From: Cyanobacteria bacterium J007
GTDB taxonomy: Bacteria; Cyanobacteriota; Cyanobacteriia; Cyanobacteriales; Laspinemataceae
DNA length: 64,000 bases
Reading direction: 5' to 3'
Assembly (NCBI GenBank): GCA_003695985.1
Contig: RFFV01000139.1
Location: 8,669 to 72,668 of the forward strand
Part shown: positions 5,201 through 47,910 of the stretch, in pieces
Layout: every line of letters begins with the position of its first letter
Numbering within the stretch: the stretch's first letter is position 1
The notes under the pieces: model-generated
Database searches by the model: none
The model's input: the letters and a program-made list of their open reading frames with translations, nothing else
What the model was told of the DNA's origin: nothing
Program-made: the position numbers and the translations under genes

Positions 5201-8183
5201 CGTTGGTAAGGCGTTCGCCCGAGGCGATCCGGCTCCCTTCTCCTTGATTGCCGAATTCCCCGGCGTCTACACAGCCCACTAAGCCGATTTCCGCGTCAAA
5301 CCGACGGCACCCCATTTCTAGCAGTTGGGTCAGTCGCGCGTCAAAATCGAGATCGGCAGAAGCGGTCACGGTGTAGAGGGCGCGAATGGCGGCTTCGCTT
5401 TCTTGCAGGGACTCGATCAGGTGCAGTTTTTCCGCTTCGGCTTGTTTGCGTTCGGTGATGTCGTTGAGGGTGCCACTGGTGCCGTTCATTTGCCCGTTCT
5501 CGTCGCGCATTGCCTGGGCGAATACCTGGAACCAGCGCACGTTACCGTCTTTGGTCAGGTAGCGCAATTCGGCTTGACAGGTGTCTTTTTGGCCGAGGTT
5601 GAGAGCTTCTAAATGGGCGATCGCGATCGGGCGATCGTCGGGATGCAAGTAATCGACGCACGATTGACCCAGACTTTCCTCAACACTGAAGCCGAGACTG
5701 GCGGACCAAGCGGGATTGAGAAAGGTCCAACATCCGCCCGCGTCGGTTTGAAAGATTGTTTCTTCGATCGTGTTGACGACGGAGCGATATTTTTCTTCGC
5801 TTTGGGCGAGCGCTTGTTCCATCGATTTGCGATCGCTGATGTCGGTAATCGTACCGACATAGCCTTCGATCTCGCCGTTGGCGTCGATTTCGGCGATCGC
5901 CTGTCCGATGACCCAACTGATGCTCCCATCGGCGCGTAAAAACCGATATTCGCTCTTGAACGGCTCGTTTTTGGCGACGGACTCGAACCAGTCTCGGAAA
6001 ACGCGATCGCGATCGTCCGGATGCAAGGATTTTGCCCATCCTTCCCTTAGTGCGTCTTCTAAACTCAATCCGGTAATGTCTTGCCAGCGTTGGTTGACAT
6101 AAAGACAGTTACCCTCGGCGTCGGTGCGGAAGATACACACGGGCGAGGCTTCGCTGAGGTTTTGATAGCGCCGTTCGCTTTCCCGTAGGGCTTGTTGGGC
6201 GTGGCGGCGTTCGGTAATATCTTCGACGGTGGCGATCGCCAGATGCGGCTGTCCTTGGGCGTCGCGCACGATCGAAACGGTCAGGTTGCACCAAATTATC
6301 TCGCCGTCTTTACAGATATAGCGTTTTTCCAGTTGGTAGCGATCGCGGGTTCCGGCGCCGATCTCGGCAAATAACGGTTTTTCGAGTTCGAGATCTTCGG
6401 GATGGGTAAACTCTTCATAGCCCATGTTGGCGAGTTCGGTTTCGCTGTAGCCGAGCATTTCTTGAAACGCCGGATTCGATTGCAAAATCCGCCCGTCTTC
6501 CAAGTTACCCAAGACGATGCCGATTCCGGTTCCTTCGACGATCGCCCGCAAGTGGGCTTCGCGTTCTTCCAAAGACATGATTAACTGGTTTTTTTCTGCT
6601 TCCATTCGTTTGCGTTGGGTGATATCTTGGGTCAGCACCATTCCCGCGAAGATACTGCCGTGTTCGTCGCGCACGGGTAAGGTTCGGGTCAGGTAAATGC
6701 GATCGGTATATTCGATTTCGTTGGTAATTGTTTCTCCGCCAAGGGCTTTGCAGTAATCATCGACCACCGCCTCGCAGGTTTCCCGGGGGAAGACTTCCCA
6801 AATCGTTTTGCCCTCCATTTGCTCTTTCGACAGACCCACGGTTTCTAAACCTTGTCCGTCCACGAGCAGGTAGCGCAAATCGCGATCGAACAAGACCACG
6901 GCCCCTTCGGGAAAATTGCGGGTAAAGGTACGATACAGTTGTTCGCTTTCGCGCAAGGCGGTTTCGACGCGCTGGCGATCGCCAATTTCTCGCTTGAGTT
7001 CGGCGTTGGCGATTTCGAGTTGGGCGGTGCGTTCGCGGACCCGATTTTCTAACTCGGTGGTGAGTTTTTCGATTTCGGCTTCGGCTTTTTTACGTTCGGT
7101 AATTTCTTCGACCGTACCGATAACGCACTCCGGAATCCCTTCGTGATTTTTGATGTTGGAAACAATCAGACGAACGGGAATAATTTCTCCGGTTTTACGA
7201 ACGTAGCGTTTCTCGATCTGATAGCTTTTGCGCGCTCCTTGCAACAGTTGACCGACGAGTTCTCGTTCTCGTTCTATATCTTCTTCGTAAGTGAATTTTG
7301 CAAACGAAATTCCTTCTAATTCGCTTTCGCTAAACCCAAGCATTTGTTGTAAGGCGGGGTTCGTTTTGCTGAGAATTCCTTCGACACTGGCGATCGCTAT
7401 CCCCAAGGCGGCTTCTTCAAAGAGGGTCCGAAATAACGATTCGCTCTGTCTCAATTCTTGTTCGATCCGTTGGCGCTCTCGGATCTCTTTTTCTAATTCC
7501 CGATTGCTCGCTTCGAGTTCGCCGGGACTCGGAAAGTCGAGGGCTTTCGCTTTGAAAAAGGCGATCGTTCCTACGGTGGCGACGGCGATCGTGGCGGCTC
7601 CTCCTTTAATTAACCCGGAAATCCAATCGATCGAATACCATAAATTCCATGCCTCGATAAAGTGGACGATCGCTTGAGAAATGATCAAGGCTCCCAAACA
7701 TAAAACCATCCGCTTGTAAGGTAAGTCTTGCCGTCGGCGCATGAAGTCAATTAACAGGACGGCGATCGCCAAATAAGCTAACCCCACGACGATTTCCGAC
7801 CCTTCGTGTAACCCAATAGAAGCCCATTGTCCGGTGTCGCTTCCTATCTGGGCGATCGCGAAGCGGCTCCCTTGGAGCATCGCCGCCAGCAACCCGGGCC
7901 AATGTCCTAGAATTATTGCAAGGGTCGTGGGGGGTAACTCAAACATTCCGGGAGACATGGGTTTTAAGGATTGAGAGAAAGGAGATGCAAGCAGCGCTTG
8001 TCTCGGCGTCAAACACCTCAGCAACGTACCGATGGGTAGAGCCGTCAAAATCGGGCGATCGCCCTTACGGGTGATGTTACCGACGAGCATTGATGCGATT
8101 TGCACTCTCTCCCACTTTAGCTTGAGTGCGCCGGACGAACCTCCCCAAAAATACCCATCCGGTTTTACGCAGATCCTCCGCAA
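2202..8183 (-). CDS. Very large hybrid sensor histidine kinase with two receiver domains and a C-terminal HPt domain. 8183 gives the longest ORF; internal ATGs at 7958 or 8090 are alternative starts.
   Basis: 1993-aa ORF. Domain order: membrane-spanning N-terminus, coiled coil, multiple PAS and GAF repeats, HisKA H-box ([25 protein letters not shown]), HATPase_c, REC1 ([10 protein letters not shown]...DMQMPEMDG), REC2 ([13 protein letters not shown]...DVQMPEMDG), and HPt ([13 protein letters not shown]). Confidence 0.9.
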
Positions 8184-9611: not shown

Positions 9612-11210
9612 ATGTCCGGGTACAAAATCGGCCTCGATTTCGGGACGACGAACTCGATTATTTCTTATTTCACCTCCTCCGCCGAAGTAGAAGCCTTTCA
9701 ATATGGCGGTCCCGACGGTCGCCGCTATATTCCCTCGTTTATCGGCTACGACGAGGAATTTGTCGAAATTGGCACCGCCGCGCGGACTCTCGCCGCCAAT
9801 CACGGGGATGTGGAAACTTACGGCAATTTTAAAATGCGCTTGCCCATTCCCGCCGATCGATTGCCGGAGTACATTCGCCACGATCGCACCCCCGCCAGCG
9901 TCACTACGGATTACTTGCGCGAACTGCTCGTTTCTGAGGAAAATCCTTACAGTTTTTGCAAACAACAAGGGGAAATCTCCGGTCTGGTGGTCTCGGTTCC
10001 CGAAATTTGGCAGCGCGATCTTTACAATCGCGGACGAGAATTGTTAAAACAGGCGATCGCCGCTCTCGATTTGCCCCTCATTCAATTGGTCAGCGAACCC
10101 GTCGCCGCCGCCGCTTACTATACTTGGGACATGCAACGACGGGCAAAAGATGCGGGAGATGAGAGTTTTTCGGGAAATCTCCTCGTGTGCGATATGGGTG
10201 GCGGTACGTTTGATGTGAGTTTATGCCGAATTTACGGGGAACAAAAAGTCGATGTCCTCTATTTTGACGGACAGGGCGATCGCGGTCTCGAATCCGCCGG
10301 GGTAGCTTTCGATCGCCGTTGCGTGCAAGCAGCTTACAAGGCAAAGCACGACTCGACCCTCGACGAAAACGACCCGGAATTCCTGCGCCTGTTACGGGAA
10401 TTTGAAACGGTCAAAATCGGCTCTCACGCCCGCGTGACGCGATACCTCACAAATGCCGTGTGCGAGCCGGAAATTTACGGCGATCGCCAGATTTACGTGT
10501 TTGCCGGGGGGTATTCCCTCAATTTCGCACAAGTGTGCGAGGCATTCGCACCGATCGCCGCCGGAATTACCGCAGTCATCGAACGAGTCCGAACCTGGAT
10601 CGCCGAACGACAACAGACGATCGATCGCGTCTTCCTCGTCGGCGGTTTTTCTCAGTTTTTCCTCGTCCGACGGGCGATCGCCTCAGCCTTACAATTCGCT
10701 ACAGACGATCCCCGTCTCGACGCAACCTTTAACCTCACCCACAGCGCTTATGCGATCTCCTACGGCGCCTGTTTGATCGCCAACGATCGCGTCCAACCCA
10801 GCGAAAAATATCTGCACAATCTCGGGATCGTGGTCGATACCATCGACGCCAACGCCGAACGCCAACGCCGCGCGATCGAAATTATCAAAGGTGGCACCCG
10901 CTTGGAAGAGTTATCTCAACCCCAATTTGCCGATATTCCCCCCTTAGTGACCTTTCAACAAGATGCACCCTTGACCCTCACCCTCTGGGTAGACCCCCAA
11001 GGAAAAGGCGTCTTGGTCGAAGAATCCTTACCGGAGATGGTGAAGTTACCGAGTTATTCTCCAGAGGATAAATGGCGGGTGGGAATGCGCGTCGATCGCT
11101 CTCAAATTGCTTATTTAACCATTGAAGAAGTTCGCGGGGAAAAACGAGTGGAATATGAGTTAGGCAATGTTTTAGCGAAAATGTTTCCCGGTTTCGTGTT
11201 AATTGAATAA
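9612..11210 (+). CDS. Hsp70-family (actin-fold) ATPase, non-canonical. It lacks the typical DnaK substrate-binding domain.
   Basis: 532 aa. N-terminus IGLDFGTTNS matches the Hsp70 phosphate-1 motif; CDMGGGTFDVSL matches the Hsp70 signature DLGGGTFD; the connect-2 motif is LVGGFSQ. Confidence 0.8.
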   Translation: MSGYKIGLDFGTTNSIISYFTSSAEVEAFQYGGPDGRRYIPSFIGYDEEFVEIGTAARTLAANHGDVETYGNFKMRLPIPADRLPEYIRHDRTPASVTTDYLRELLVSEENPYSFCKQQGEISGLVVSVPEIWQRDLYNRGRELLKQAIAALDLPLIQLVSEPVAAAAYYTWDMQRRAKDAGDESFSGNLLVCDMGGGTFDVSLCRIYGEQKVDVLYFDGQGDRGLESAGVAFDRRCVQAAYKAKHDSTLDENDPEFLRLLREFETVKIGSHARVTRYLTNAVCEPEIYGDRQIYVFAGGYSLNFAQVCEAFAPIAAGITAVIERVRTWIAERQQTIDRVFLVGGFSQFFLVRRAIASALQFATDDPRLDATFNLTHSAYAISYGACLIANDRVQPSEKYLHNLGIVVDTIDANAERQRRAIEIIKGGTRLEELSQPQFADIPPLVTFQQDAPLTLTLWVDPQGKGVLVEESLPEMVKLPSYSPEDKWRVGMRVDRSQIAYLTIEEVRGEKRVEYELGNVLAKMFPGFVLIE

Positions 11211-11216
11211 TGGAAA

Positions 11217-11236
11217 TTTTAGATTTTAGATTTTAG
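11217..11236. repeat. Heptamer tandem repeat (TTTAGAT, three units).
   Basis: ttttagattttagattttag, in the spacer between the Hsp70-like gene and its coiled-coil partner. Confidence 0.6.
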
Positions 11237-11271
11237 GGTGAAGAGAGAAGCCCGCGCTCTATTGCGTAGCA

Positions 11272-15342: not shown

Positions 15343-16233
15343 CTACAATCGAAAGTCACGCACGCTTTGCCAGTAGGAAAGAGGAACCCCCGTATCGAAA
15401 CATTCTCCTTGCAAACAACAGCCATACATTCCTTCCAACTGACGCAACTGTTCTAAGGCTGTCGTGAGTTGGATTTCGCCGCGATCGCGCCGTCCGTCTC
15501 GGATGTTTTGTTCGAGAATCTCGAAGATTTTGGGCGTTAACAAATACAGCCCAAAAACGGTTAAAAAATCGTTCTCCGCCAATCCTTCGACCCGCAGATG
15601 CGATCGCGCGTAATTCAAATCCGGCTTTTCGGCTACTTCGCTTAAGTTTATCAGCCCTGTTTCCGGCTGCCAAGTCCCCGCGACACAGCCGCAATGATAC
15701 AGCTCCTCGGCGGGAGTGACGGTCACCCCGATCGCACTTTTTCCGACTCGTTCGTAGACTTCAACCAGTTGACGCGCGCAAGAGATTTCCCGCGTCGAAC
15801 GATAAATATGGTCGCCTAACATTAATAAAAAAGGTTCTGTGCCAACCCAATCTTTAGCGCAATAAACGGCGTGACCGAAGCCGTCTTGTACGGGTTGAGT
15901 CAATATATTAATCCGTTTGCCGACGGTTTCTAAATAACGGACGTATTCTTTTTGATGGGGTTTTATTTTATTATCAAAGGCTTCGGAAAGGGGCGTTTTA
16001 AAAAAGTCTTCAAATTGGGCGCGATCGCTCTCGCGGGTGACGATCGCGATCTGTTCGATTCCGCCACTGATGGCTTCTTCGGCGATCGCTAATATAATCG
16101 GTTTGGCGATCCCGTCGCGATCGACGATCGGAAATAATTCTTTGGCGATCGCTTTGGTCGCCGGAAACAGTCGGGTTCCAAATCCACCCGCCGGAATGAC
16201 AGCTTTACGAACTTTTGATTTGACTTCGGTCAT
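15343..16233 (-). CDS. galU: UTP-glucose-1-phosphate uridylyltransferase.
   Basis: 296 aa with KAVIPAGGFGTRLFPATKAIAKELFPI and VAEKP motifs, as in GalU. Confidence 0.75.
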   Translation of the reverse strand: MTEVKSKVRKAVIPAGGFGTRLFPATKAIAKELFPIVDRDGIAKPIILAIAEEAISGGIEQIAIVTRESDRAQFEDFFKTPLSEAFDNKIKPHQKEYVRYLETVGKRINILTQPVQDGFGHAVYCAKDWVGTEPFLLMLGDHIYRSTREISCARQLVEVYERVGKSAIGVTVTPAEELYHCGCVAGTWQPETGLINLSEVAEKPDLNYARSHLRVEGLAENDFLTVFGLYLLTPKIFEILEQNIRDGRRDRGEIQLTTALEQLRQLEGMYGCCLQGECFDTGVPLSYWQSVRDFRL

Positions 16234-16352
16234 TTCGATCGAATTACGATTAGCAAAAGGGGGCAGTTTTTGCCGTTCTCGGCGATCGCCTTCACTCAGT
16301 CAATTTTGATTGATTTTAAGGGTGGCGGCGATCGGCGAGGTTCTTAACCCTC

Positions 16353-16462
16353 TACAGCAATTCGCGCTGTCATGAGGTACAAGAGGCAAAGATCCCCCCA
16401 ACCCCCCTTTAAAAAGGGGGGCAGTGAAAGTCCCCCTTTTTAAGGGGGATTTAGGGGGATCG
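16353..16462. repeat. Structured ~110-bp repeat (MITE/REP-like), copy A.
   Basis: TACAGCAATTCGCGCTGTCATGAGGTACAAGAGGCAAAGATCCCCCCAACCCCCCTTTAAAAAGGGGGGCAGTGAAAGTCCCCCTTTTTAAGGGGGATTTAGGGGGATCG, located in the galU/EamA divergent spacer. A near-identical inverted copy lies at 27788..27896. Confidence 0.8.
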
Positions 16463-16567
16463 AAATGTACTGCCGAACAGCGAAAACTGCTCTATGCTCT
16501 TTTCCTGACAGCGATTTAGTTTTATCTGTGGTAAATTCCCCCTAGATTTTACCCCAGAAGATCCCCA

Positions 16568-17506
16568 ATGACTGTCAAACATACTCTGGACTCTCCTGTA
16601 AAACATCCCCTGGCGTGGCAGCTCAATCTGACGATCGCGGTTGGGGTTTTAGCGGTCTCCACTGCCGCCATTTTTATCCGCTTGACCCTGGAAGCTGCGG
16701 GAACCCGAGGGATTGGCTTTAGTTTGGTGATGGCCGCCACTCGCCTCACAATTGCCTCACTTTTGTTGGCTCCCGCGTGGCGCAACTTCAAACCCGCGCG
16801 TCTCGAAAAAGTGACGATCGCCCAAGCTGCCCTCGCTGGCGTGTTTTTAGCGCTCCATTTCGCCGGGTGGATCGCGTCGCTTTCTTATACTTCGATCGCC
16901 GCTTCGACGACGATCGTCACCATGAATCCGATTTGGGTTTCCTTGCTGTCTTGGTGGATTTACAAAGACAAACCCACGAAAATGACGGTCACCGGAATCG
17001 CGATCGCCTTAATGGGGGGAATGGCGATCGGATTGGGAGATAGTGGCGGGTTGTACGGCGGAAGTAACCCAATTTTGGGAGATCTGCTCGCGTTGTTAGG
17101 ATCTTGGACGATTAGTATCTATTTATTGCTGGCGAAGTCGGTGCAAAGTCGGGGGATGGGAATTGGTCCGTACAGCGCGATCGTTTGTACTTGTGCGGCG
17201 CTGGTTTTACTCCCGATGCCGTTTGTTTTTCAAACTTCATATTTCGGCTATCCCACGGAAGTTTATTTTTATATTCTTCTGATGGCTTTGATTCCTCAAA
17301 TGATCGGTCATACGAGCTTAAATTGGGCCGTTCGTTGGACGTCGCCGACTTTGGTGGCGTTGGCGGTTTTATTTGAACCCGTTGCATCGAGTTTTTTGGG
17401 CTTTCTCGTTTTTAATGAAGTTCCCGGGATCTCGGTTTTAATTGGAGCGATCGTTTTGTTATTTGGAGTGGCGATCGCCGCGATCGGGTCGCGTCCCCAG
17501 GGATAG
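16568..17506 (+). CDS. EamA/DMT-family transporter.
   Basis: 312 aa, about 10 TM helices, with the duplicated EamA-like architecture. Confidence 0.75.
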   Translation: MTVKHTLDSPVKHPLAWQLNLTIAVGVLAVSTAAIFIRLTLEAAGTRGIGFSLVMAATRLTIASLLLAPAWRNFKPARLEKVTIAQAALAGVFLALHFAGWIASLSYTSIAASTTIVTMNPIWVSLLSWWIYKDKPTKMTVTGIAIALMGGMAIGLGDSGGLYGGSNPILGDLLALLGSWTISIYLLLAKSVQSRGMGIGPYSAIVCTCAALVLLPMPFVFQTSYFGYPTEVYFYILLMALIPQMIGHTSLNWAVRWTSPTLVALAVLFEPVASSFLGFLVFNEVPGISVLIGAIVLLFGVAIAAIGSRPQG

Positions 17507-17535: not shown

Positions 17536-20409
17536 TTACTCGGGAGAACATAAGTCCATGATGTGAGGCGGCGAACTGGCACCGGACGATCGCGCCGCCG
17601 TCAGCAAGATTTGGCCGTCGGCAGTGCGATCGAAGCCGCGCGCCTCGATTAAAGGATCCGAAGGGCGATCGCGGGATGAGTTGGCCGCCGAGGGCGTCTC
17701 CCGGGTCTCCCAGATGGGTTCGACCAACTCCACCGACACCCCGTCGCGGCTGAGGGGTTGACCGGGATTGACGGGTAAGCCGCCGCGTCCGCGAATGGCG
17801 AAGCTACTTTCGGCGAGTTGTTCGGGATTGCAGGGGCTGCGCGCGATCGCCGCATCCGGGTCGGCGACCTCGACTTCGGGCAGATTGGCGGGTTCGATAT
17901 CGATATCGCCGTCAATATTTAACTGCCCTCGGGCATTGATAATACTGTCGGGAGAGAGTAGAACTAATAACTCGTCTCCTCGGATGGCGCTAATGGCGAT
18001 ATTGCTGCCTCCTTGAGGGTCCGTGGCGCTGGTGACGATCTGGCTGGCTTCGAGCAATACCAGGGTTTCGGCGGCGATCGTGATATTGCCTTCCTGCGTA
18101 ATATTCCCGGTTTGACTGCCTGCGGCGACAATTTCGCTGCGATTGCGTAAGAGAATATCGGGCGATCGCAGGTCAATATTACCCCCTTTTCCGATCGCCG
18201 ATGACGCTTGCAAGGCGCCGCGATCGAGTTGCACGTCCGACGCCGCAATCTCAATATTGCCTGGGGTTCCCGTCCCTTCCCCGTTGACGCCGATCCGGGA
18301 TCCGTCGGCCACCTGGAGGCGGTCCGTGGCGATCGCGATGCCCCCGCCATTGCCCGATCCGAGGGTGCGCGCGTCAATTTGAGCATTCCCGACGATTTCG
18401 ACGCTTTCCGTCGCCTCTAAGCGCAAACGGCCCGCATTCCCTTCCCCAGAGGTTCCCAAGAGCACGATCGCCCCGTCGCCCACCCTCAAGCGGGGAGTGG
18501 CGATCGTCACGTTCCCCGCATTCCCCGCCCCGTCGGTATCGGCGGTGATTAAGGTCGGCAAACTGCCATCCGGCGAGGTCCCTCTAAACTCGATCGCCTC
18601 CGACGCCTCCAACAACATCAACCCGCCGACCCCGTCCACCGAGGTACTCGTCCCGATTTCGCCGCCATCGCGCACGATCAAACGGCGGGTTCTCACGGTC
18701 ACGTCCCCGGCGTCTCCCGACCCGAACCCTTTCGTCGTCAGCAAACTGCGTTCCCCGTCCGCACTGACTCCGGCAATATCTACTAACTCGGCCCCCTCGA
18801 TCTCCAGTCTGCCGCCCTTTCCCGTCCCGTTGCTGGCGGCTTCGATTTGGGCGCCGTCGCTCAAACTGAGTAGGGGGGTGACGATCTCGATTTCCCCCGC
18901 CTCGCCACTGCTGTAAGCGGTCGCCTCGATTTGGGTCGATGTTCCGGTTTGGGGGTCGGTTCCGCTCAACTGCACCGATTCTGAGGCGCGGATGGTCAAG
19001 TTTCCTCCCCGTCCCGGGCCGAAGGTTCGAACGCGCACTTGGGCGCCGTCGCGCATCGTCAGGCGCCGGGTGGTAATATCGACATTGCTGGCGTTACCGA
19101 CTCCGAGGGTGGAAGCGTCGAGGATGCTGGCGAATTGGCCATTTATGGGAATGCCGCTTAATTCTACCGATTCTGAGGTGGCGATCGCGATCGTTCCCGC
19201 TTCGCCGTCGCTGACGGTTCCCACGGTAATCCAGCCGCCGTCCAACACGTTTAATTGGGTCCCACGCACTTCGACGCTACCCGCATCGCCATTGCCGAAG
19301 GCGCCGGATCCGACGATCGTGCGAGAGGTGCCATCTCTGGAAATCCCGCTAATTTCGACGACTTCCGACGCTTCTAGGGCGATTTCGCCCCCATCTTCCT
19401 CGCCGAGACTGTCGGAACGAATTTCCGATCCTCCGGTAATGGTGAGATTGCGCCCGTGTACGCGGACGCCGCCATCGCCGCCCAACCCGGTGAATAAGCC
19501 GGATTCGTTGGTGATGGAGATATCTTGAAATGAGGATAAGGGGGAGGTTTCTTCAAACCCGAATTCTCCTCGTTCTCCCGTCGTTCTCAGTTGTCCGTTG
19601 CGACCGGACCACAACTCGATTCGACCTTGGGGGGCTTTTAATAAGGCCCCGTCTAAGACAATCGGACCGCCAACGAGGGCTAAGGTGCGATCGGGTCGAA
19701 CCCCCAACCCGTCCTCGCGGGCGAGAATGCTCAGTTGAAAGGCGATTTCTTGGCGCGCCGTTTCGATGTTCTGGGTCGCCGTTTCGGTTCCGTCGAAATC
19801 TGAGGTGGCAAAACCGCGCCCGAGTCCGATTCCGTTGATGGCGATCGCCCCGGGATTGTCGCCCAATTGCAAGCCGACGGGAACGCTAACGGTGAGCAGG
19901 GTGTCGGTTTGAGGGGCGATCGCGCTAAAATGGCTGCCGTCGTCGAATAAGACCGCTTCCGCACTGGTTGCAACAAAGGAACCGCCTACATTTAAGGAAG
20001 CATTCGGTCCGAAAACGATGCCGTTGGGGTTGATTAAGAAGAGGTTGGCGCCGCCGTTGGCTTGGAGGAGACCGTCGATGTTACTCAGGTCGCTTCCGGT
20101 CACCCGCGAAAAGATATTTTCGATCGTCCGGGGGTTGTCGAAGGTGGCGGTTGTTCCGGTAGGGATCGAGAAGCTTTCAAAACTGTGGAATAAATTGCGC
20201 GATCGCGCCGTTCCTCCGGTAATCTGAATTGTATTTCCTTCGACGGTGACCGTGGAGCGATCGGGTAAGGTCGCATCGGGTACGATTTGAGCGATCGCCT
20301 GTCGTTCGATCGTACCCGAAGAGAACAGGGAACAGGCGATCGTTGCGAACAAAACCGTTCTCTGCAGACCCGTAGAGGTTCGCCGTCGTGTTGTTGTAGC
20401 TTTATTCAT
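17536..20409 (-). CDS. Filamentous-haemagglutinin-type exoprotein with an N-terminal TPS (haemagglutination activity) secretion domain and a beta-helical repeat body.
   Basis: 957 aa. Signal peptide, then TVEGNTIQITGGTARSRNLFHSFESFSIPTGTTATF, which is the TPS NPNG/NLFHSF region. After that come Gly/Ser/Thr-rich repeats. Confidence 0.85.
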   Translation of the reverse strand: MNKATTTRRRTSTGLQRTVLFATIACSLFSSGTIERQAIAQIVPDATLPDRSTVTVEGNTIQITGGTARSRNLFHSFESFSIPTGTTATFDNPRTIENIFSRVTGSDLSNIDGLLQANGGANLFLINPNGIVFGPNASLNVGGSFVATSAEAVLFDDGSHFSAIAPQTDTLLTVSVPVGLQLGDNPGAIAINGIGLGRGFATSDFDGTETATQNIETARQEIAFQLSILAREDGLGVRPDRTLALVGGPIVLDGALLKAPQGRIELWSGRNGQLRTTGERGEFGFEETSPLSSFQDISITNESGLFTGLGGDGGVRVHGRNLTITGGSEIRSDSLGEEDGGEIALEASEVVEISGISRDGTSRTIVGSGAFGNGDAGSVEVRGTQLNVLDGGWITVGTVSDGEAGTIAIATSESVELSGIPINGQFASILDASTLGVGNASNVDITTRRLTMRDGAQVRVRTFGPGRGGNLTIRASESVQLSGTDPQTGTSTQIEATAYSSGEAGEIEIVTPLLSLSDGAQIEAASNGTGKGGRLEIEGAELVDIAGVSADGERSLLTTKGFGSGDAGDVTVRTRRLIVRDGGEIGTSTSVDGVGGLMLLEASEAIEFRGTSPDGSLPTLITADTDGAGNAGNVTIATPRLRVGDGAIVLLGTSGEGNAGRLRLEATESVEIVGNAQIDARTLGSGNGGGIAIATDRLQVADGSRIGVNGEGTGTPGNIEIAASDVQLDRGALQASSAIGKGGNIDLRSPDILLRNRSEIVAAGSQTGNITQEGNITIAAETLVLLEASQIVTSATDPQGGSNIAISAIRGDELLVLLSPDSIINARGQLNIDGDIDIEPANLPEVEVADPDAAIARSPCNPEQLAESSFAIRGRGGLPVNPGQPLSRDGVSVELVEPIWETRETPSAANSSRDRPSDPLIEARGFDRTADGQILLTAARSSGASSPPHIMDLCSPE

Positions 20410-21415: not shown

Positions 21416-21674
21416 AACGACTGTTGCTCCTTGTTATGCAATTACGGTACTGATTCCAGGATAGGGTGCAAACCTGCCGAGTGACCAGAAGTTGGGGTCT
21501 ACTCTTAAAAAAGTGACCCGGAGTCCACGCCTACCGCAAGCATCCCGTGTTGCTGCTCCCTTCCGGGCCTGACAAGGTTTAGGCGTTGCGATCGCATGGG
21601 TCCGGATCGTTTACTAGCATATCATTATTAAAGGAGAAAACAAGGGTTCGGGCTGAAAAATCCCCAAAACCCCC

Positions 21675-26512: not shown

Positions 26513-27733
26513 CTAACCCAACTCGTGCCAGCATTCCCGGGCGATCGCCCAATCTTCTTGCGCCCGCACCAGCAAGACCCGCACCCTCGAATCCGGCGCG
26601 GCGATATCCGTATCCACAGGCGATCGATCGTTTTTGTGCGGATCTAATTTAACGCCAATCAGCGCCAACGCCTCGCACGCCGCTTCGCGAATTGGCGGGT
26701 GGTGTTCGCCGACTCCTCCCGTAAACACGATCGCGTCCGCGCCTCCCAACGCCACCAGCATCGATCCGAGGTGAGCGTTGAGGGATTTTTGGTATAATTT
26801 CAACGCCAGTCGGGCGCGATCGTTTCCCCGGGCGATCGCCGCGTCGATCTCGCGCAAATCGCCGGAAACACCGGAAATTCCTTTCAAACCGGACGATCGA
26901 TTGAGCATGTTATCTAAATCTTCCGGCGTGAGATCGTGCTGTTGTTGCCAGTAGAGCAACAGTCCCGGATCTACGGATCCCGATCGCGTCCCCATCATCA
27001 AGCCTTCTAACGGGGTAAATCCCATCGTCGTATCGATACTGCGCCCTCCGGCGATCGCCGCCAGAGAACAGCCATTGCCTAAATGACAGGCAATCAAGCG
27101 CAAGTCTTCTAAGGGTTTGCCCAACAGTTGTGCGGCGCGCTGGCTGCAATATTGATAGCTGATACCGTGAAATCCATAACGGCGGATGCCGCGATCGTAC
27201 CACTCGTAAGGCACGGGATAAATCGCCGCTTCCGGCGGTAAGTGGGCGTGAAAGGCGGTATCGAAGACGGCGACTTGGGGAATTTCCGGTAAAATCTCTT
27301 CGATCGCCTCGATTCCTTCTAAATTGGCGGGATTGTGCGATGGAGCCAGGGAGGACAATTCGGCGATCGTCTGTTTGACATCGCGATCGATCGTCACGGG
27401 CGATCGATACTGGTCGCCGCCGTGAACGATGCGATGTCCGACGGCATCAATTTCTTGAGGGTCGGCGATCGCTTTTGTTTTGCCTTCCCACAAGGTTTTT
27501 AACATCTGCGCGATCGCGGGCGATCGTGATTCTGTAGGGTTTTTAATTGCTAATGTTTTCTCTAATCTTTCCTCCTCTTTATTTGCCGTTAATTCCGCCA
27601 CTCCCCGGTGACGAGTCCAATCTATTTTAGCTTCCCACAAGGGAGAATTCGGTACTATTTTAGGAGGATTTTTTATGTCATAAAGGCAACTTTTCTGACT
27701 GCTAGATCCGGCATTTAAAACTAAAATCTTCAT
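26513..27733 (-). CDS. ackA: Acetate kinase.
   Basis: 406 aa. N-terminus MKILVLNAGSSSQKSCLY and internal VHGGD and FDTAFH motifs match AckA. Confidence 0.9.
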   Translation of the reverse strand: MKILVLNAGSSSQKSCLYDIKNPPKIVPNSPLWEAKIDWTRHRGVAELTANKEEERLEKTLAIKNPTESRSPAIAQMLKTLWEGKTKAIADPQEIDAVGHRIVHGGDQYRSPVTIDRDVKQTIAELSSLAPSHNPANLEGIEAIEEILPEIPQVAVFDTAFHAHLPPEAAIYPVPYEWYDRGIRRYGFHGISYQYCSQRAAQLLGKPLEDLRLIACHLGNGCSLAAIAGGRSIDTTMGFTPLEGLMMGTRSGSVDPGLLLYWQQQHDLTPEDLDNMLNRSSGLKGISGVSGDLREIDAAIARGNDRARLALKLYQKSLNAHLGSMLVALGGADAIVFTGGVGEHHPPIREAACEALALIGVKLDPHKNDRSPVDTDIAAPDSRVRVLLVRAQEDWAIARECWHELG

Positions 27734-27787
27734 AAACTTTCATAAACTCTCATACAGCACTCGGGCGATCCGATCGAGGTACAGTGC

Positions 27788-27896
27788 CGATCCCCCTAAA
27801 TCCCCCTTCAAAAGGGGGACTTTCACTGCCCCCCTTTTGAAGGGGGGTTGGGGGGATCTTTGCCTCTTGTAACTCATGACAGCGCCAATTGCTGTA
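27788..27896. repeat. Structured ~110-bp repeat (MITE/REP-like), copy B. It is the inverted copy of the element at 16353..16462.
   Basis: The reverse complement of 27788-27896 is about 95% identical to 16353-16462. Internal hairpins include CCCCCCTTT/AAAAGGGGGG and TCCCCCTTT/AAGGGGGAT. It sits in the xfp-ackA spacer. Confidence 0.8.
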
Positions 27897-28021
27897 AACA
27901 TAGCTGATGACCTTAAAATTATGCTAAATACACCGCACAATTTCAAGATCGGCGAAGAGAGAGGCTCCCTTCGATCGCCCTGAGAACCTCTCTCAATTCA
28001 TCCTCGTTTTAAAAGGATCGA

Positions 28022-30454
28022 CTAACACCACTGCCAGTTCGTAATCTCGGCGGGATCGACCCCATTTTCACAGATATATTTGCTGTGTTCCGCTAACACG
28101 TATTCGTAATGGCGGACGCGATCGTTCGCGTGGGCGGCGACCCGAGAATTGCGCCGAGAACCCAAACGAATCGCCTGCATAATCAGATGATAACGACTGG
28201 CCCGATTGCGAACTAACATATCAAACGGCGTGGTCGTATTGCCTTCTTCGCGATAGCCGTTAATATGGAAGCGATCGAGATTCGGACGACCGAAAATGAG
28301 TTGTTCGATGAGAGAAGGATAGCCGTGAAAATTGACAATCACCGGGCGATCGCTCGTCAATAACGCCTCAAACATATCCGCATCCAAACCGTGAGGATGT
28401 TCGGATTGTTCTTCGAGAACTAACAAGTCCGTCACGTTCACCACTCGCACTCGTAAATGAGGCATTTGCGATCGCAAAATATGAGCCGCCGCCAGCACTT
28501 CGACGGTAGGAACGTCGCCAATTCCGACGAGAACCACATCCGGATCGACTCCATCATCCGTACTCGCCCACGGCCAAACCGAGGCCCCGGCGCGGCAGTG
28601 CGCGATCGCCTCTTCCATTGACAACCATTGCGGCATCGGGTTCTTATTCGCCACCACTAAATTGACATAACCCGTACTCTGCAAACAGTGGTCTAAGGTA
28701 CTGATTAAGCAGTTCGCATCAGGGGGTAAATAGACCCGAGCAAACTCCGCTTTTTGGTCGAGAACGCTATTGAGAAAACTGGGATTTTGGTGGGAAAATC
28801 CGTTATGTTCCTGTCGCCACAACGTCGAACTTTCGAGATAGTTTAACGAGGCGACGGGCAGACGCCAGGGAAATTCTTTAGAGACTTTTACGAACTTGGC
28901 ATATTGATCCATCATCGTCGTCACGATCCCTAAAAATGCCTCGTAAGACGGGAATAAACCGTGACGTCCGGTTAATAAATAACCTTGCAACCAGCCCTGA
29001 CAGTTATGCTCGCTCAACACTTCTAAGACGCGACCGCCATGCGATCCGATATTTTCGTCGTCCGCATCGGTGGGCCATTGAAAATTACGTTGGGTCAGGT
29101 CGAACACTTCGCCCAAACGGTTCGATTCGAGTTCGTCCGGGCTGAAAATCCGGAAATTTTGCGGGTTGAGGGCGATGACCTGTTTGAGATATTTGGCTAA
29201 TTGTTCCGTATTACCGAGTTGGCGATCGCCCCGTTTGCAAGTGCCGTCCGTTTCTTGGCGTTCCACGGGAACTTCCGACTCGAACAAGTCGGGCAGGTTG
29301 AGGGCCTCGCGCATCCGTCCCCCGAAAGTATACGGGTTACAGCCCATCCGCCGATCGCCTTGCGGACAAAGGGCGAGGATGTCCGGTTCGGGCGCGCCGG
29401 ACTCGTCGAACAAGTCCTCGGGACCGTAGGACCGCAACCATCGTTCTAATTTTTGGCGTTCGCCTTCCTGACTTTTAACGTGTTTGGCCGGAACTTGGTG
29501 CGATCGATAGGAACCTTCGATCGGTTCGCCGTGCAGTTCCTCGATCCCGGACAGTCCTTTCGGCGATCGCAAAATTAACATCGGCCAGCGCGGTTGGGCG
29601 ATCGGTTCGCCGGATCGGGCGGCCTGTTGGATCCGGCAAATCTCTTGATAAGCCCAATCCATGGAAGCGTAGAGATCCGCATCGAGGTCGTCGTCGCCGA
29701 CGATTCGCACTTGATAGCCATAGCCGGAAAACAAGTGTAGTAAGTCTTCATCGCTCATCGATCCGTAGATCGTGCGACTCGAAATTTTGTACTGATTTAA
29801 GTGTAAAATCGGCAGCACCGCCCCCGATTCGGCAGGGTCGATATACTTATAGCTGTGCCATGCCGTCGCCGTCGGCCCGGTTTCCGATTCGCCATCGCCG
29901 ACGATACAGGTAACGATGAGATCGGGATTGTCCATCACCGCCCCGAAGGAAGTCGCCAGGGCATAGCCGAGTTCGCCCCCTTCGTGAATTGTGCCGGGAA
30001 TGCCGGGATATAAGTGAGACGGAAAGCCCCCGGGCCAGGAGAACCGTTTGATAAAGTCGTGAAGACCTGCCGCGTCGAACGTCAATTCCGGATAAAACTC
30101 TTGCAACGAGCCTTCCAGATACAGGTTAGCTAAGTTGGCGGGCGCGCCGTGTCCCGGTCCGGTGACCAGAAATAGATTGACATCGTAGCGACGAATGAGG
30201 CGATTGAGATGGGCGTAAATCAAGTTGATGCCCGGGGTCGTTCCCCAATGACCTAACAAACGATCTTTAATATGTTCCGGTTGCAGGGGATCGCGCAAAA
30301 GTACGTTATCTTTGAGATATATTTGAGCGGCAGCGAGGTAATTCGCCGCGCGACGGTAGCGGGCGATCGCCTCTAACTGTTCTCGGTTGTGTTCGCGAAC
30401 TTGCCCCACATCGATTTCGGGACCGAATTGAGTTTTGATGGGGGTCACGGTCAT
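28022..30454 (-). CDS. xfp: Xylulose-5-phosphate/fructose-6-phosphate phosphoketolase.
   Basis: 810 aa. TPP-dependent phosphoketolase signatures (GHWGTTPG, EGGELGY). Lies upstream of ackA on the same strand. Confidence 0.9.
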   Translation of the reverse strand: MTVTPIKTQFGPEIDVGQVREHNREQLEAIARYRRAANYLAAAQIYLKDNVLLRDPLQPEHIKDRLLGHWGTTPGINLIYAHLNRLIRRYDVNLFLVTGPGHGAPANLANLYLEGSLQEFYPELTFDAAGLHDFIKRFSWPGGFPSHLYPGIPGTIHEGGELGYALATSFGAVMDNPDLIVTCIVGDGESETGPTATAWHSYKYIDPAESGAVLPILHLNQYKISSRTIYGSMSDEDLLHLFSGYGYQVRIVGDDDLDADLYASMDWAYQEICRIQQAARSGEPIAQPRWPMLILRSPKGLSGIEELHGEPIEGSYRSHQVPAKHVKSQEGERQKLERWLRSYGPEDLFDESGAPEPDILALCPQGDRRMGCNPYTFGGRMREALNLPDLFESEVPVERQETDGTCKRGDRQLGNTEQLAKYLKQVIALNPQNFRIFSPDELESNRLGEVFDLTQRNFQWPTDADDENIGSHGGRVLEVLSEHNCQGWLQGYLLTGRHGLFPSYEAFLGIVTTMMDQYAKFVKVSKEFPWRLPVASLNYLESSTLWRQEHNGFSHQNPSFLNSVLDQKAEFARVYLPPDANCLISTLDHCLQSTGYVNLVVANKNPMPQWLSMEEAIAHCRAGASVWPWASTDDGVDPDVVLVGIGDVPTVEVLAAAHILRSQMPHLRVRVVNVTDLLVLEEQSEHPHGLDADMFEALLTSDRPVIVNFHGYPSLIEQLIFGRPNLDRFHINGYREEGNTTTPFDMLVRNRASRYHLIMQAIRLGSRRNSRVAAHANDRVRHYEYVLAEHSKYICENGVDPAEITNWQWC

Positions 30455-40158: not shown

Positions 40159-41053
40159 AAGACCGCCGAATATTAAAACAGCACCAATCTTGACGCCGCC
40201 AAAGGGTCGCGACGACCCAGCCATGCTGTTCGAGGGTATCGGCGACAGGTTTCGCTTGTTCGAGCAGCACCCCACTAATAATTCCCCAGGTACTCGGCTT
40301 GCAAATATGATCCATCTCGGGAATTAAATCTAAAATAGTTTCGGCGAGGATATTGCAAATAATGCCATCGACAGGTTCTTCAATCAGTTGTTTGACCCGT
40401 TCGACACTGCCGAGTTTAACTAACATTTTCGACTCGGCAATTTTATTGAGTTCGCGACACCGACGGGCGGCCCGAACGGCGAGGGGGTCGATATCCACCG
40501 AGTAGGCTTTTCCGGCGCCCAACAACAGCGCCCCAATGGATAAAATCCCCGAACCGCAACCGATATCGGCCACTTGTACCCCAGAATCGCTCGGATCGAA
40601 GCCCAAACGCATTTCTAACGCTTCGAGACAGAGTTGAGTGGTGGCGTGGGCGCCCGTACCGAAAGCGGCGCCGGGGGCCAAGCGCAGCAGCAGGCGATCG
40701 CACTGTTCCGGAAGGGGAAGCCACGCCGGATAAATCAAAAAGCGATCGCCGATCTCTTGCGGGTGCCAGTGTTTTTTCCAACTGATCGCCCAATCTTCCT
40801 CCTCAATTAAATTCCACTGCATCGCGGGAGTGGGCAATCCGATCGCGAGAGCATCTTGGCGCAACAGTAGGGAAAGCGCGGACAAATCCAGCATTTGAGC
40901 GCGTTCCTGGGGCAGATAGGTGGAAATCAAACAGGAATGACCCTTTAGTTCCGTGGCCATCCCGCGACAGCCGAAATTTTCCAAGCGCCAGAAGATCGAA
41001 TCTTCCAGAGCCGGATCGCACAGCACTTGAATTTCCCACCAATTGTTGGCCAT
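40157..41053 (-). CDS. prmA: Ribosomal protein L11 methyltransferase.
   Basis: SAM-binding motif [23 protein letters not shown] extends to 41140; the internal ATG at 41053 ([11 protein letters not shown]...) fits the PrmA N-terminus. Confidence 0.8.
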
Positions 41054-46128: not shown

Positions 46129-46710
46129 ATGCAGCTAGGAGGCACGATTTCCATGAACCGTCCCACATTGCTGACTGCCAGCGCCCTCGCCCTCGTCCTG
46201 GGATGCTCCCTTCCCACCCTCGCCCAAGTCAATGCCCCGGTGCAAGAGCTGCTAGAAACCCGGAACGGTGCGGGTTTCAACCTCAACGGCGCCGATCTGT
46301 CCGGTCGCGATTTGGTGGGGGTCGATCTGCGCGGGGCCAACCTCAACGGCGCCGATTTATCCGGCGCTAATTTATCCGGTGCGAACTTAACCGGGGCCAA
46401 CCTCAGAGGGGCAAATTTACGCGCCGCCAATCTAACAGAAGCCGATTTATCCGTTGCCAATTTAGTCGAAGCGACCTTAGACGGAGCTAATTTACAAGAC
46501 GCACTGTTAAAAGCTGCAAACTTGAGTGGAGCCCATTTAGTAGAAGTAGATTTGCGCAATGCCGATTTATTTCGGGCAAATTTGAATGCGGCAAACTTAA
46601 GAGGCTCGAATTTACTCAATGCCAATTTTAATGCAGCGAATTTAATCGGGGCGAACGTCCTCGGTTCGAGAGGCGGTAACTTTACCAATGCTATTGGGTT
46701 TACGCCATAA
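46129..46710 (+). CDS. Secreted pentapeptide-repeat protein.
   Basis: Signal peptide with a lipobox-like LGC, then tandem A(N/D)LxG pentapeptides. The antisense ORF 46113..46745 is a repeat artefact. Confidence 0.7.
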   Translation: MQLGGTISMNRPTLLTASALALVLGCSLPTLAQVNAPVQELLETRNGAGFNLNGADLSGRDLVGVDLRGANLNGADLSGANLSGANLTGANLRGANLRAANLTEADLSVANLVEATLDGANLQDALLKAANLSGAHLVEVDLRNADLFRANLNAANLRGSNLLNANFNAANLIGANVLGSRGGNFTNAIGFTP

Positions 46711-46918
46711 ATAAGAGGGAGTGAGGGCGTCGGAGCGATCGCCACCGGAGCGATCGAAAATGCAGGTCAAATCGCGATGTTTTTATTTGTTTTAAAAGAA
46801 AAATTATCGCAGGTCTGCGGTCGATCGAAAACGGGGATTTTTTTAGAGAGAACCTGTTAGCGATCGCCGGAGCGGGGGAACACTAAGCGACAAGATTATA
46901 AATTACGGGGGGGAAACC

Positions 46919-47530
46919 GTGAAACTCAGTCTTTTACTCTCTTTAGTTTTACCCGTAGCGATCGCTTGGTCGAGTCCCGGTCACGCCGCCAACCCAGAAC
47001 ACGTCACCCAATTGTTACAAACGAAACAATGCGAGGGATGCGATTTAAGTGATGCGGATTTAGTCGGGGCGGATTTGCGCGAAGCGAACTTAAAGGGTGC
47101 GAATTTAACGGGAGCAAATTTAGAAGCGGCGAACCTGTGTAATGCAGATTTATCAGAAACAAATTTAGAACAGGCTATCTTAATTAATGCCAATTTATTT
47201 GAAGCGAACTTATCTGGAGTCAATCTCAGACAAGCGCAGTTAGGGAATGCCAATCTCAGTTTTATTAATTTAAGTCGTTCGGACTTAAACGGGGCGAATT
47301 TATCCCAAGCCAATTTAGGGATGGCCAACTTGAGCGATGGGAACTTAAGTTATACCAATTTACGCGGAGCCAATTTAATCGGTGCAAATTTAAGCGGAGT
47401 CAGTTGGGAAGCGGCAAATCTGACCGACGCTCATTTAGATCCTGCCAGTATCAACGAGGCGAACGGGTTGGGAACGGGAGAAACCAGCGCCGTCGAAGTG
47501 ACGGAACGCGATCGCGCCCGAGTCCGATAA
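46919..47530 (+). CDS. Secreted pentapeptide-repeat protein.
   Basis: Signal peptide MKLSLLLSLVLPVAIAWSSPGHA followed by pentapeptide repeats. Confidence 0.75.
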   Translation: MKLSLLLSLVLPVAIAWSSPGHAANPEHVTQLLQTKQCEGCDLSDADLVGADLREANLKGANLTGANLEAANLCNADLSETNLEQAILINANLFEANLSGVNLRQAQLGNANLSFINLSRSDLNGANLSQANLGMANLSDGNLSYTNLRGANLIGANLSGVSWEAANLTDAHLDPASINEANGLGTGETSAVEVTERDRARVR

Positions 47531-47600: not shown

Positions 47601-47800
47601 TAGCGATCGAAAGGACAACGAAAAAATAACCGGATCGATCCGGGTCGTGCTAGCTCGCGCTGCTCGCTTCGATCGCCATTGTAAATGATGGGTAACTCAA
47701 GTCGGGAGCAAGATGCTCCCACAGGGAACAAGATCTTCCCAGGACCGAGGGGTTGAGCTAGGCAAGCCGGACTCAACGGATTGAGAAATGCTATACAATC

Positions 47801-47854
47801 GAAAATCTAAAATCTAAAATCTAATTTAAAATCTAAAATCTAAAATCTAATTTA
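47801..47854. repeat. Heptamer tandem repeat (AAAATCT units with AATTTAA spacers), STRR-like.
   Basis: aaaatctaaaatctaaaatctaatttaaaatctaaaatctaaaatctaatttaa. Confidence 0.8.
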
Positions 47855-47910
47855 AAAGGCGGCCTTGGGTTTAACATAAACCAAAGATAACCCCTAAAGA
47901 AAAACAACGA

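Follow-up and report, generated by a model that had tools for sequence, protein, structure and literature searches.

The 64-kb window analysed in this study (the whole stretch of DNA, 64,000 nucleotides in length) contains two copies of a hairpin-rich repeat, designated copies A and B, each located in an intergenic spacer. Searches with Pfam and NCBIfam agree with the placement given in the first-pass annotation, which had assigned copy A to the spacer between galU and EamA and copy B to that between xfp and ackA. The genes bordering the two copies are as follows.

15343-16233, minus strand, GalU-like nucleotidyltransferase (best NCBIfam hit galU, below the curated cut-off)
16568-17506, plus strand, EamA transporter (Pfam/NCBIfam); copy A lies between the GalU-like gene and this gene
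28022-30454, minus strand, phosphoketolase, xfp (Pfam/NCBIfam)
26513-27733, minus strand, acetate kinase, ackA (Pfam/NCBIfam); copy B lies between xfp and ackA

Several other features were observed in the surroundings. A 957-aa protein with an N-terminal TPS domain of the two-partner secretion exoprotein type is encoded at 17536-20409 on the minus strand, and is annotated as 938 aa long in L126, against 957 aa in L125 and L127 (L numbers are our handles for the fetched loci). The bacterial small SRP RNA at 21512-21608 on the minus strand (62.7 bits) was the sole Rfam match at gathering score. The 889-aa ORF at 30659-33328 on the minus strand, directly upstream of xfp, encodes a full-length Major Vault Protein homologue with Vault repeat 1-4 and MVP_shoulder domains (E values down to 3e-65), whose position is conserved in all Oxynema-like contigs fetched (L129, L130, and L137). 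Vault proteins are mainly eukaryotic. Moreover, the window is rich in HIP1 (GCGATCGC) and in STRR-like heptamer arrays (TTTAGAT / AATCTAA), which are found in both orientations in intergenic regions (38333-38402, 40105-40166, 47778-47857, and 11199-11245). These repeats mark the window as cyanobacterial. A long run of repeats with a 15-nt period at 46272-47394 was read as a pentapeptide-repeat coding region.

Repeat finding in the 64-kb window identified copies A and B as inverted repeats at 16353-16462 on the plus strand and 27788-27896 on the minus strand, with identities of 93-94%. The 110-nt copies as first noted were 95.5% identical by blastn over 110 nt (E = 2e-44), and three sub-motifs of 18-24 nt each occurred exactly twice in the window, where 0-0.05 occurrences were expected from shuffles. 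The two inverted copies of about 95% identity that had been reported are thus real. The nested palindromes that had been described are present as such in copy A, and copy B carries the variants CCCCCCTTCAAAAGGGGGG and TCCCCCTTTTGAAGGGGGA. The extent of ~110 bp given for the repeat had to be revised, being ~32-35 bp short on one side of a true element of ~140 bp. A copy in Roseofilum halophilum revealed the extension past the earlier right boundary; this right arm had been missed because copies A and B have diverged there. The ends of copy A were set by alignment of the family and by comparison with an empty site in L125. The parts of the two copies are listed below, in which TIR denotes a terminal inverted repeat.

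16353-16494, plus strand, copy A, a probable MITE, with both TA (element proper 16355-16492, 138 bp)
16353-16354, no strand, left TA of the target-site duplication of copy A (a single TA in the L125 empty site)
16355-16381, plus strand, left TIR of copy A, CAGCAATTCGCGCTGTCATGAGGTACA (23/27 against the TIR of the IS630-family IS in L142/L143)
16391-16461, plus strand, G5/C5 palindromic core of copy A, 71 nt (outer stem GATCCCCC/GGGGGATC)
16402-16421 (CCCCCCTTTAAAAAGGGGGG) and 16431-16449 (TCCCCCTTTTTAAGGGGGA), plus strand, small palindromes of the core of copy A (loop CAGTGAAAG at 16422-16430)
16466-16492, minus strand, right TIR of copy A, degenerate (reverse complement GAGCAGTTTTCGCTGTTCGGCAGTACA; CAGCA, CGCTGT, and GTACA conserved)
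16493-16494, no strand, right TA of the target-site duplication of copy A (from the empty-site comparison and the TA flanks)
27753-27896, minus strand, copy B, a probable MITE, with both TA (element proper 27755-27894, 140 bp; in the xfp-ackA spacer)
27868-27894, minus strand, left TIR of copy B, CAGCAATTGGCGCTGTCATGAGTTACA (from the alignment of ends)
27789-27858, minus strand, G5/C5 core of copy B, 70 nt (inverted in situ in the L137 orthologue)
27755-27783, plus strand, right TIR of copy B, remodelled internally (element strand TGTACCTCGATCGGATCGCCCGAGTGCTG)

Both copies have the same layout, which consists of a TA, a left end of 27 nt, a linker of 9 nt, a core of 70-71 nt, a linker of 4-5 nt, a degenerate inverted end and a second TA. 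The length of the element ranges from 138 to 141 bp. The two ends can be aligned as inverted repeats in which the CAGCA, CGCTGT, and GTACA blocks are conserved, and the consensus of these imperfect TIRs of ~27 nt is 5'-CAGCAnTTnnCGCTGTyATGAGGTACA. At the right terminus of copy A, a G-to-C change is found (…TGCTC for …TGCTG), which makes the exact junction ambiguous by 3 bp (CTCTA occurs on both sides). Given that the right TIR of copy B is remodelled internally, copy B may no longer be mobilisable. The element is non-coding, with only short frame-variable ORFs that are broken by stop codons in copy A. The ORFs of 53-54 aa called over copy B and over a third copy, copy C, are translated repeat, and the corresponding 'hypothetical proteins' are annotation artefacts.

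The RNA fold of 131 nt around the earlier interval (16345-16475) is a long hairpin of -66 kcal/mol with a z of -7.9; the first-pass annotation had proposed such a prediction as a check. The full element as ssDNA folds at -33 kcal/mol (z = -5.7). In addition, the RNAalifold consensus of six full copies shows end-to-end pairing with 44 pairs, five of which have compensatory changes. According to these models, the whole element is one long hairpin when folded. Such a structure could be a gene-specific cis-regulatory RNA, for instance an attenuator, a riboswitch-like leader or a processing site, that is conserved before EamA and ackA. The very stable fold with its compensatory changes fits this explanation, and so do the co-orientation of both window copies with the downstream gene and the position of copy B, whose end lies 19 nt ahead of the ackA start codon and which diverged relatives retain. 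Given that the element is nearly palindromic, however, its orientation carries little information. Moreover, the Rfam search at gathering score over the whole window returned no match on the element, and at permissive E-values copy A matched only miRNA-hairpin models (best E 0.13), which are chance hairpin matches. No intrinsic terminator (GC hairpin plus U tract) was found on either strand at 16200-16600 or 27700-28060, which speaks against the terminator role that the first-pass annotation had considered for the repeat.

Comparison with closely related genomes revealed an empty site for copy A. Exact protein matches assign the window to JGI contig Ga0181961_1203912 and also lead to two complete genomes, Ga0573901_01 and CP051167.1, whose fetched stretches share 97-99.5% identity with the window; CP051167.1 is Oxynema sp. 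AP17 (PMC7595944). Copy A is carried by the window strain and by Oxynema sp. AP17 and is absent from L125 of Ga0573901_01, where the flanks in the GalU-like/EamA spacer are 97-99% identical and enclose a single TA (…CCTC TA TGCTC…). The window sequence without 16353-16492 is the same as L125 at 61 of 64 positions, with no gaps. Copy A was inserted recently into the divergent spacer between the GalU-like gene and EamA. The inverted ends of ~27 nt and the TA that is single at the empty site and duplicated around copy A answer the earlier suggestion to look for terminal inverted repeats and target-site duplications. TA was found on both sides of all six full-length copies (copies A and B of the window and those in L132, L001, L002, and L137) and also flanks related MITEs in L139, L072, and L061 and the IS630 ISs in L142 and L143.

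Further copies, which had likewise been suggested as a check, were identified at other loci. A spurious 54-aa ORF led to copy C (L132 9982-10122), which has a kinase/WD40 gene on one side and a DUF4168 gene on the other, is located ~1.5 Mb off in Ga0573901_01 and shows 95% identity with copy A over 143 bp. Two copies were identified by blastn in each of two 8-kb loci of Roseofilum, which together hold at least four. When species-representative genomes were scanned with the central 20-mer GGGGGCAGTGAAAGTCCCCC, one copy each was recovered from R. halophilum and R. acuticapitatum; as this 20-mer misses flipped and diverged copies and did not recover Oxynema itself, the scan gives no copy count. 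It is a poor probe because the loop can be inverted. In searches with peptides translated from the element, only the ORFs of copies B and C carried the TIR-coded part, and the other matches were core-encoded and found in other contexts. Only three loci of the exact family (A, B, and C) are known in the Oxynema lineage. The family may have few copies and may at present be inactive. Among viral contigs, the TIR pattern gave one chance match within a coding sequence, and the core arm matched two contigs. Finally, the contigs L124, L128, and L131 of an independent short-read assembly (Logan SRR7905023) start or end inside the cores of both window copies. As expected for a repeat, assemblies of this organism are therefore broken up by the element.

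These results bear on two explanations that do not involve transposition. A chance or segmental duplication without mobility, to which the palindromes give the look of an element, would be consistent with only two copies in the 64-kb window and with the few copies found in the Oxynema lineage. However, the match between the copies is far beyond chance, a third copy occupies an unrelated locus, copies exist in another genus, the empty site is exact and the TIRs are homologous to those of an IS. The empty site and the dispersed copies refute this explanation, which we regard as having practically no chance of being correct. The cis-regulatory RNA described above is confronted with a near-identical strain that lacks copy A at an otherwise unchanged locus, with copies that adjoin unrelated genes, one of the Roseofilum copies being antisense to its neighbours, with ends that are homologous to IS630 TIRs and flanked by duplicated TA, and with the lack of an Rfam match. 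As the origin of the element it is largely refuted by this evidence, including the empty site, and is very unlikely.

Different from copy A, copy B has orthologues in L129 (Ga0573901_01) and in L137, a more distant relative whose AckA is 95% identical. Being shared by diverged relatives, copy B is an older insertion. No empty site was identified for copy B: the element is present in every close relative retrieved, and the spacers of distant genomes are unalignable.

Two other types of small repeats were observed at or near these sites. A second small family ends with …ATGGCTA followed by TA and has the internal inverted repeats CATTTTCA(A)TGGAA. A 70-bp copy of this family (L137 3767-3836) is inserted exactly at the left TA of copy B in L137, and a related 65-bp segment (L125 2844-2909) lies 16 bp from the empty site of copy A. 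Both spacers seem to have served repeatedly as landing sites for elements that target TA. In addition, a short hairpin repeat, GCGGGCAAGATGCCCGC / GGGAGCATCTTGCTCCC, was found beside or inside the MITEs described here (L002 ~1300-1325 and ~1475-1500, L001 ~6215-6240, L125 2855-2885, and L072 4330-4350). In L072, this repeat forms the centre of an element with IS630-type ends.

The transposase family was identified through the ends of the element. Blastn of the left end against PLSDB matched a 97-bp TA-flanked element on a Dolichospermum plasmid, which has the same ends and another centre. When this 97-bp element was used as the query, matches were found at the ends of genes annotated as IS630-family transposases. 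The IS of ~1.0 kb in CP150887.1 (Aphanizomenonaceae TIOX110) and Nostoc sp. C057 p057_H is bounded by TA-CAGCACTTCCGGCTGTTATGAGGTACA … TGTACCTCATTACAGCCGGAAGTGCTG-TA, and the transposases of the ISs in L142 and L143 contain DDE_3 (E = 3e-28) and HTH_Tnp_IS630 domains. The MITE end CAGCAATTCGCGCTGTCATGAGGTACA is identical to the IS630 TIR CAGCACTTCCGGCTGTTATGAGGTACA at 23 of 27 positions, and all MITE ends align with the IS TIR. These autonomous IS relatives were found solely through the plasmid collection; an IS630 transposase gene with such ends was seen neither in the window nor in ~1 Mb of fetched loci, the latter searched by regular expression for ISs bounded by the same TIRs. ISY100 of Synechocystis, which is a member of IS630, inserts at TA, duplicates TA and needs only ~24-30 bp per end (PMC2170065). 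Given the homology of the TIRs to those of IS630 ISs and the precedent of ISY100, the element is assigned to the IS630-type MITEs. With high confidence, we interpret the repeat of this Oxynema-like cyanobacterium as a MITE, a non-autonomous DNA transposon of the IS630/Tc1-mariner type. In the proposed mechanism, the ~27-nt TIRs would be the ends bound by the transposase. An IS630-family transposase encoded elsewhere would excise the element and paste it into a TA, which would be duplicated in the process, and the element would be mobilised in trans by such a transposase in its host.

Similar to the ends, the core was also found outside the exact family. Its architecture is GATCCCCCC-AA-CCCCCCTTnnnnAAGGGGGG … CCCCCTTnnnnAAGGGGG-ATTTA-GGGGGATC over ~70 nt. 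The left core arm GATCCCCCCAACCCCCCTT occurs at at least 120 loci in metagenomes. Among the matches listed, 134 (redundant loci and matches too near a contig end being left out) fall into 89 left-flank contexts, and 74 of the 89 flank clusters are singletons. The core is a separate module that occupies the centre of several unrelated TIR families of at least two transposase families, IS630 and IS5; its settings include IS630-type MITEs (TA), IS5-type MITEs (TTA/TAA duplication) and at least four other TIR types. The biggest core-bearing TIR family among the matches listed, GAGGATGTTTGAAAAGT, has at least 18 copies, 14 of them with TTA/TTA or TAA/TAA flanks. Its autonomous relative is a 913-bp IS5-family IS with TTA flanks on pNFSY07 of Nostoc flagelliforme (L144 2004-2916), which encodes a transposase with DUF4096 and DDE_Tnp_1 domains and is inserted within an IS630-family transposase gene. 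Members of the GAGGATGTTTGAAAAGT family carry the G5/C5 core or other palindromic cassettes, and IS630-type ends likewise occur with at least three other centres. Moreover, the core alone is present on plasmids of Nostoc, Pseudanabaena, Synechocystis, Picosynechococcus, Planktothrix, Leptolyngbya, and others, where it is never annotated.

Parts of the core were also found in tandem arrays and in coding sequences. Arrays derived from the left half of the core, with units of 48 bp and 39 bp, are located at L100 ~10750-11070 and L108 ~890-1000, with GATCCCCCCAACCCCCCTTGCCAAGGGGGGCTGAATTGGAGCGGAGCC present five times. Half a core lies in frame in NRPS adenylation domains in L007 (two sites), L010, L043, L078, L086, L098, and L102, in the context …FIPNPFEKDEV-IPPTPLNKGGNEPS-KLYKTGDLARY…, so that the coding sequence of several modules has taken up a segment derived from the repeat. 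The translation of the core, DPPKSPLKRGT…SPLFKGGxGGS, is found in many 'hypothetical proteins'.

The two arms of the core vary together. The inner 7-9 nt of the left and right small palindromes are exact reverse complements in 12 of 24 distinct cores, whereas 2000 trials with shuffled pairings gave 3.8 on average and at most 9. The matching pairs include several different non-consensus variants; it is therefore the pairing from arm to arm that is maintained, rather than two local hairpins. The core also changes orientation. Compared with copy A, the R. halophilum copy shows an exact inversion of the 11-nt loop segment, and in the L137 orthologue of copy B the whole core is flipped between unchanged ends, being 83% identical as the reverse complement vs. 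72% in the direct orientation. The nested inverted repeats allow the loop or the whole core to flip in place. The co-varying arms would mean that the long hairpin itself is selected or that its arms are matched by conversion within the hairpin. Selection would act on the hairpin, for example, as a target of a host protein or nuclease or as an aid to MITE propagation.

The properties of the core also raise the question of a REP/REPIN doublet, which would be spread by a RAYT, an IS200/IS605-like tyrosine transposase, and not by a DDE transposase. The core consists of two inverted GC-rich palindromes of 19-20 nt that form one long hairpin, is very widespread, often without recognisable TIRs, and has left flanks of which 74 of 89 clusters are singletons among the matches listed. 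Similar to the core, REPIN/REP are dispersed GC-rich palindrome doublets that form long hairpins and maintain the complementarity of their arms (PMC3116915, PMC3733652). The full element, however, has IS630-like TIRs of ~27 nt and a TA duplication, neither of which is found in REPINs. It has no GTAG/CGTC tag at the palindrome ends, and no RAYT gene adjoins any copy among the called genes. This contrary evidence bears on the full element and not on the core alone, and for the full element a REPIN is a most improbable identity. The first-pass annotation had placed the repeat between MITE and REP types. The TIRs, the TA duplication, the empty site and the IS630 IS relative sustain the former designation, and the latter is at odds with the TIRs, the missing tag and the missing RAYT.

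The IS630-type MITE is accordingly our preferred identification of the full element. Whether the core is an entity itself, a hairpin cassette found across the cyanobacteria which MITEs of unrelated transposase families exchange or capture, is a separate question, to which we give a tentative and rather doubtful yes. A literal full-text search of about 8 million papers gave no match to the core sequence, although absence there is no proof of novelty.

The position of copy B deserves attention with regard to ackA. Its right TA is located 19 nt upstream of the ackA ATG (27733), and with this spacing ackA must be transcribed through copy B or from within it. Read-through transcription of copy B together with ackA would be expected. 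The simplest reading is that copy B sits in the 5' leader of ackA and is tolerated there. xfp and ackA had been described as an operon-like pair. The pairing itself is conserved in Oscillatoria acuminata, with a spacer of 258 bp. The operon-like character is uncertain, as a strong hairpin with a 13-bp stem (GAGAGAGGTTCTC…GAGCCTCTCTC) is found directly after the xfp stop codon (27957-27994, minus strand) and a promoter-like site of the sigma-70 type, TTGAAA-17-CATAAT, just upstream of copy B (27918-27946, minus strand); the latter comes from a promoter scan and is no evidence of function. Given the xfp 3' hairpin and the promoter-like site, xfp and ackA may be separate transcription units. In Oscillatoria acuminata PCC 6304, the xfp-ackA spacer (L140 3750-3870) contains a MITE-like palindrome, GGGAGCATCTCAATTTGGC … GCCAAATTGAGATGCTCCC, which is unrelated and has a C/G-run centre of its own.

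Given the presence/absence polymorphism, the unrelated neighbours and the lack of Rfam matches and terminators, nothing suggests a gene-specific role of the element, and a secondary, co-opted effect is possible. Correia/NEMIS and ERIC are TA-flanked hairpin MITEs in leaders and spacers that are transcribed along with neighbouring genes and can serve as RNase targets or affect mRNA stability (PMC3184786). The element of the window is similar to them as a TA-flanked hairpin at leader and spacer sites and has no sequence similarity to them. By analogy, copy B could be an RNase target or a modifier of mRNA stability.

MITEs are abundant in filamentous cyanobacteria (PMC3184786, PMC2779907, PMC11602168), and the kind of element described here is known. 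Similar to the IS630/Tc1-mariner-derived MITEs of bacteria (cf. ISY100, PMC2170065) and to the eukaryotic Stowaway, the window element is small and non-coding, with a TA duplication and CAG…CTG termini. It also resembles the IS630-derived MITEs in the match of its ~27-nt ends to an IS630 TIR and in the polymorphism of filled and empty sites between strains. Different from them, its interior does not derive from the parent IS but is a palindromic cassette that unrelated MITE families carry as well. In Nostocales and Microcystis, the MITEs of 130-230 bp that have been described are Nezha, MaeMITEa-h, and those of Anabaena (PMC3184786, PMC2779907). They occur in the same phylum and share with the window element a similar size, TIRs with a direct repeat, a stable predicted hairpin, intergenic location and sites that are empty or filled among close relatives. 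They differ in host, the family of this study being found in Oxynema and Roseofilum, which are Oscillatoriales-type filaments; this comparison was made by description only. The embedding of the G5/C5 core within several MITE families resembles that of the Nostoc SDR, although the SDR are 21-27 nt in length and the core ~70 nt, and they too were compared by description only. Elhai and co-workers in 2008 reportedly found the SDR to be very small repeats that are often embedded in mini-transposons and other repeats. The family itself is new and apparently unnamed, as judged from comparison with Nezha/ISNpu3 and SDR by description only.

Our results indicate that the difference between strains in the GalU-like/EamA spacer is attributable to a transposon. 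The 140-nt hairpin in the ackA leader is relevant to studies of phosphoketolase-acetate kinase expression in Oxynema. The core recurs in assemblies, breaks contigs and yields spurious ORFs. If it has a function or spreads on its own, it would be a widespread feature of cyanobacterial genomes for which no description was found. Moreover, a MITE of Oscillatoriales-type filaments is tied to a defined IS630 subgroup of Nostocales. Finally, MITEs of cyanobacteria are modular, in that one type of end is combined with different palindromic centres, and one centre with the ends of different transposase families.
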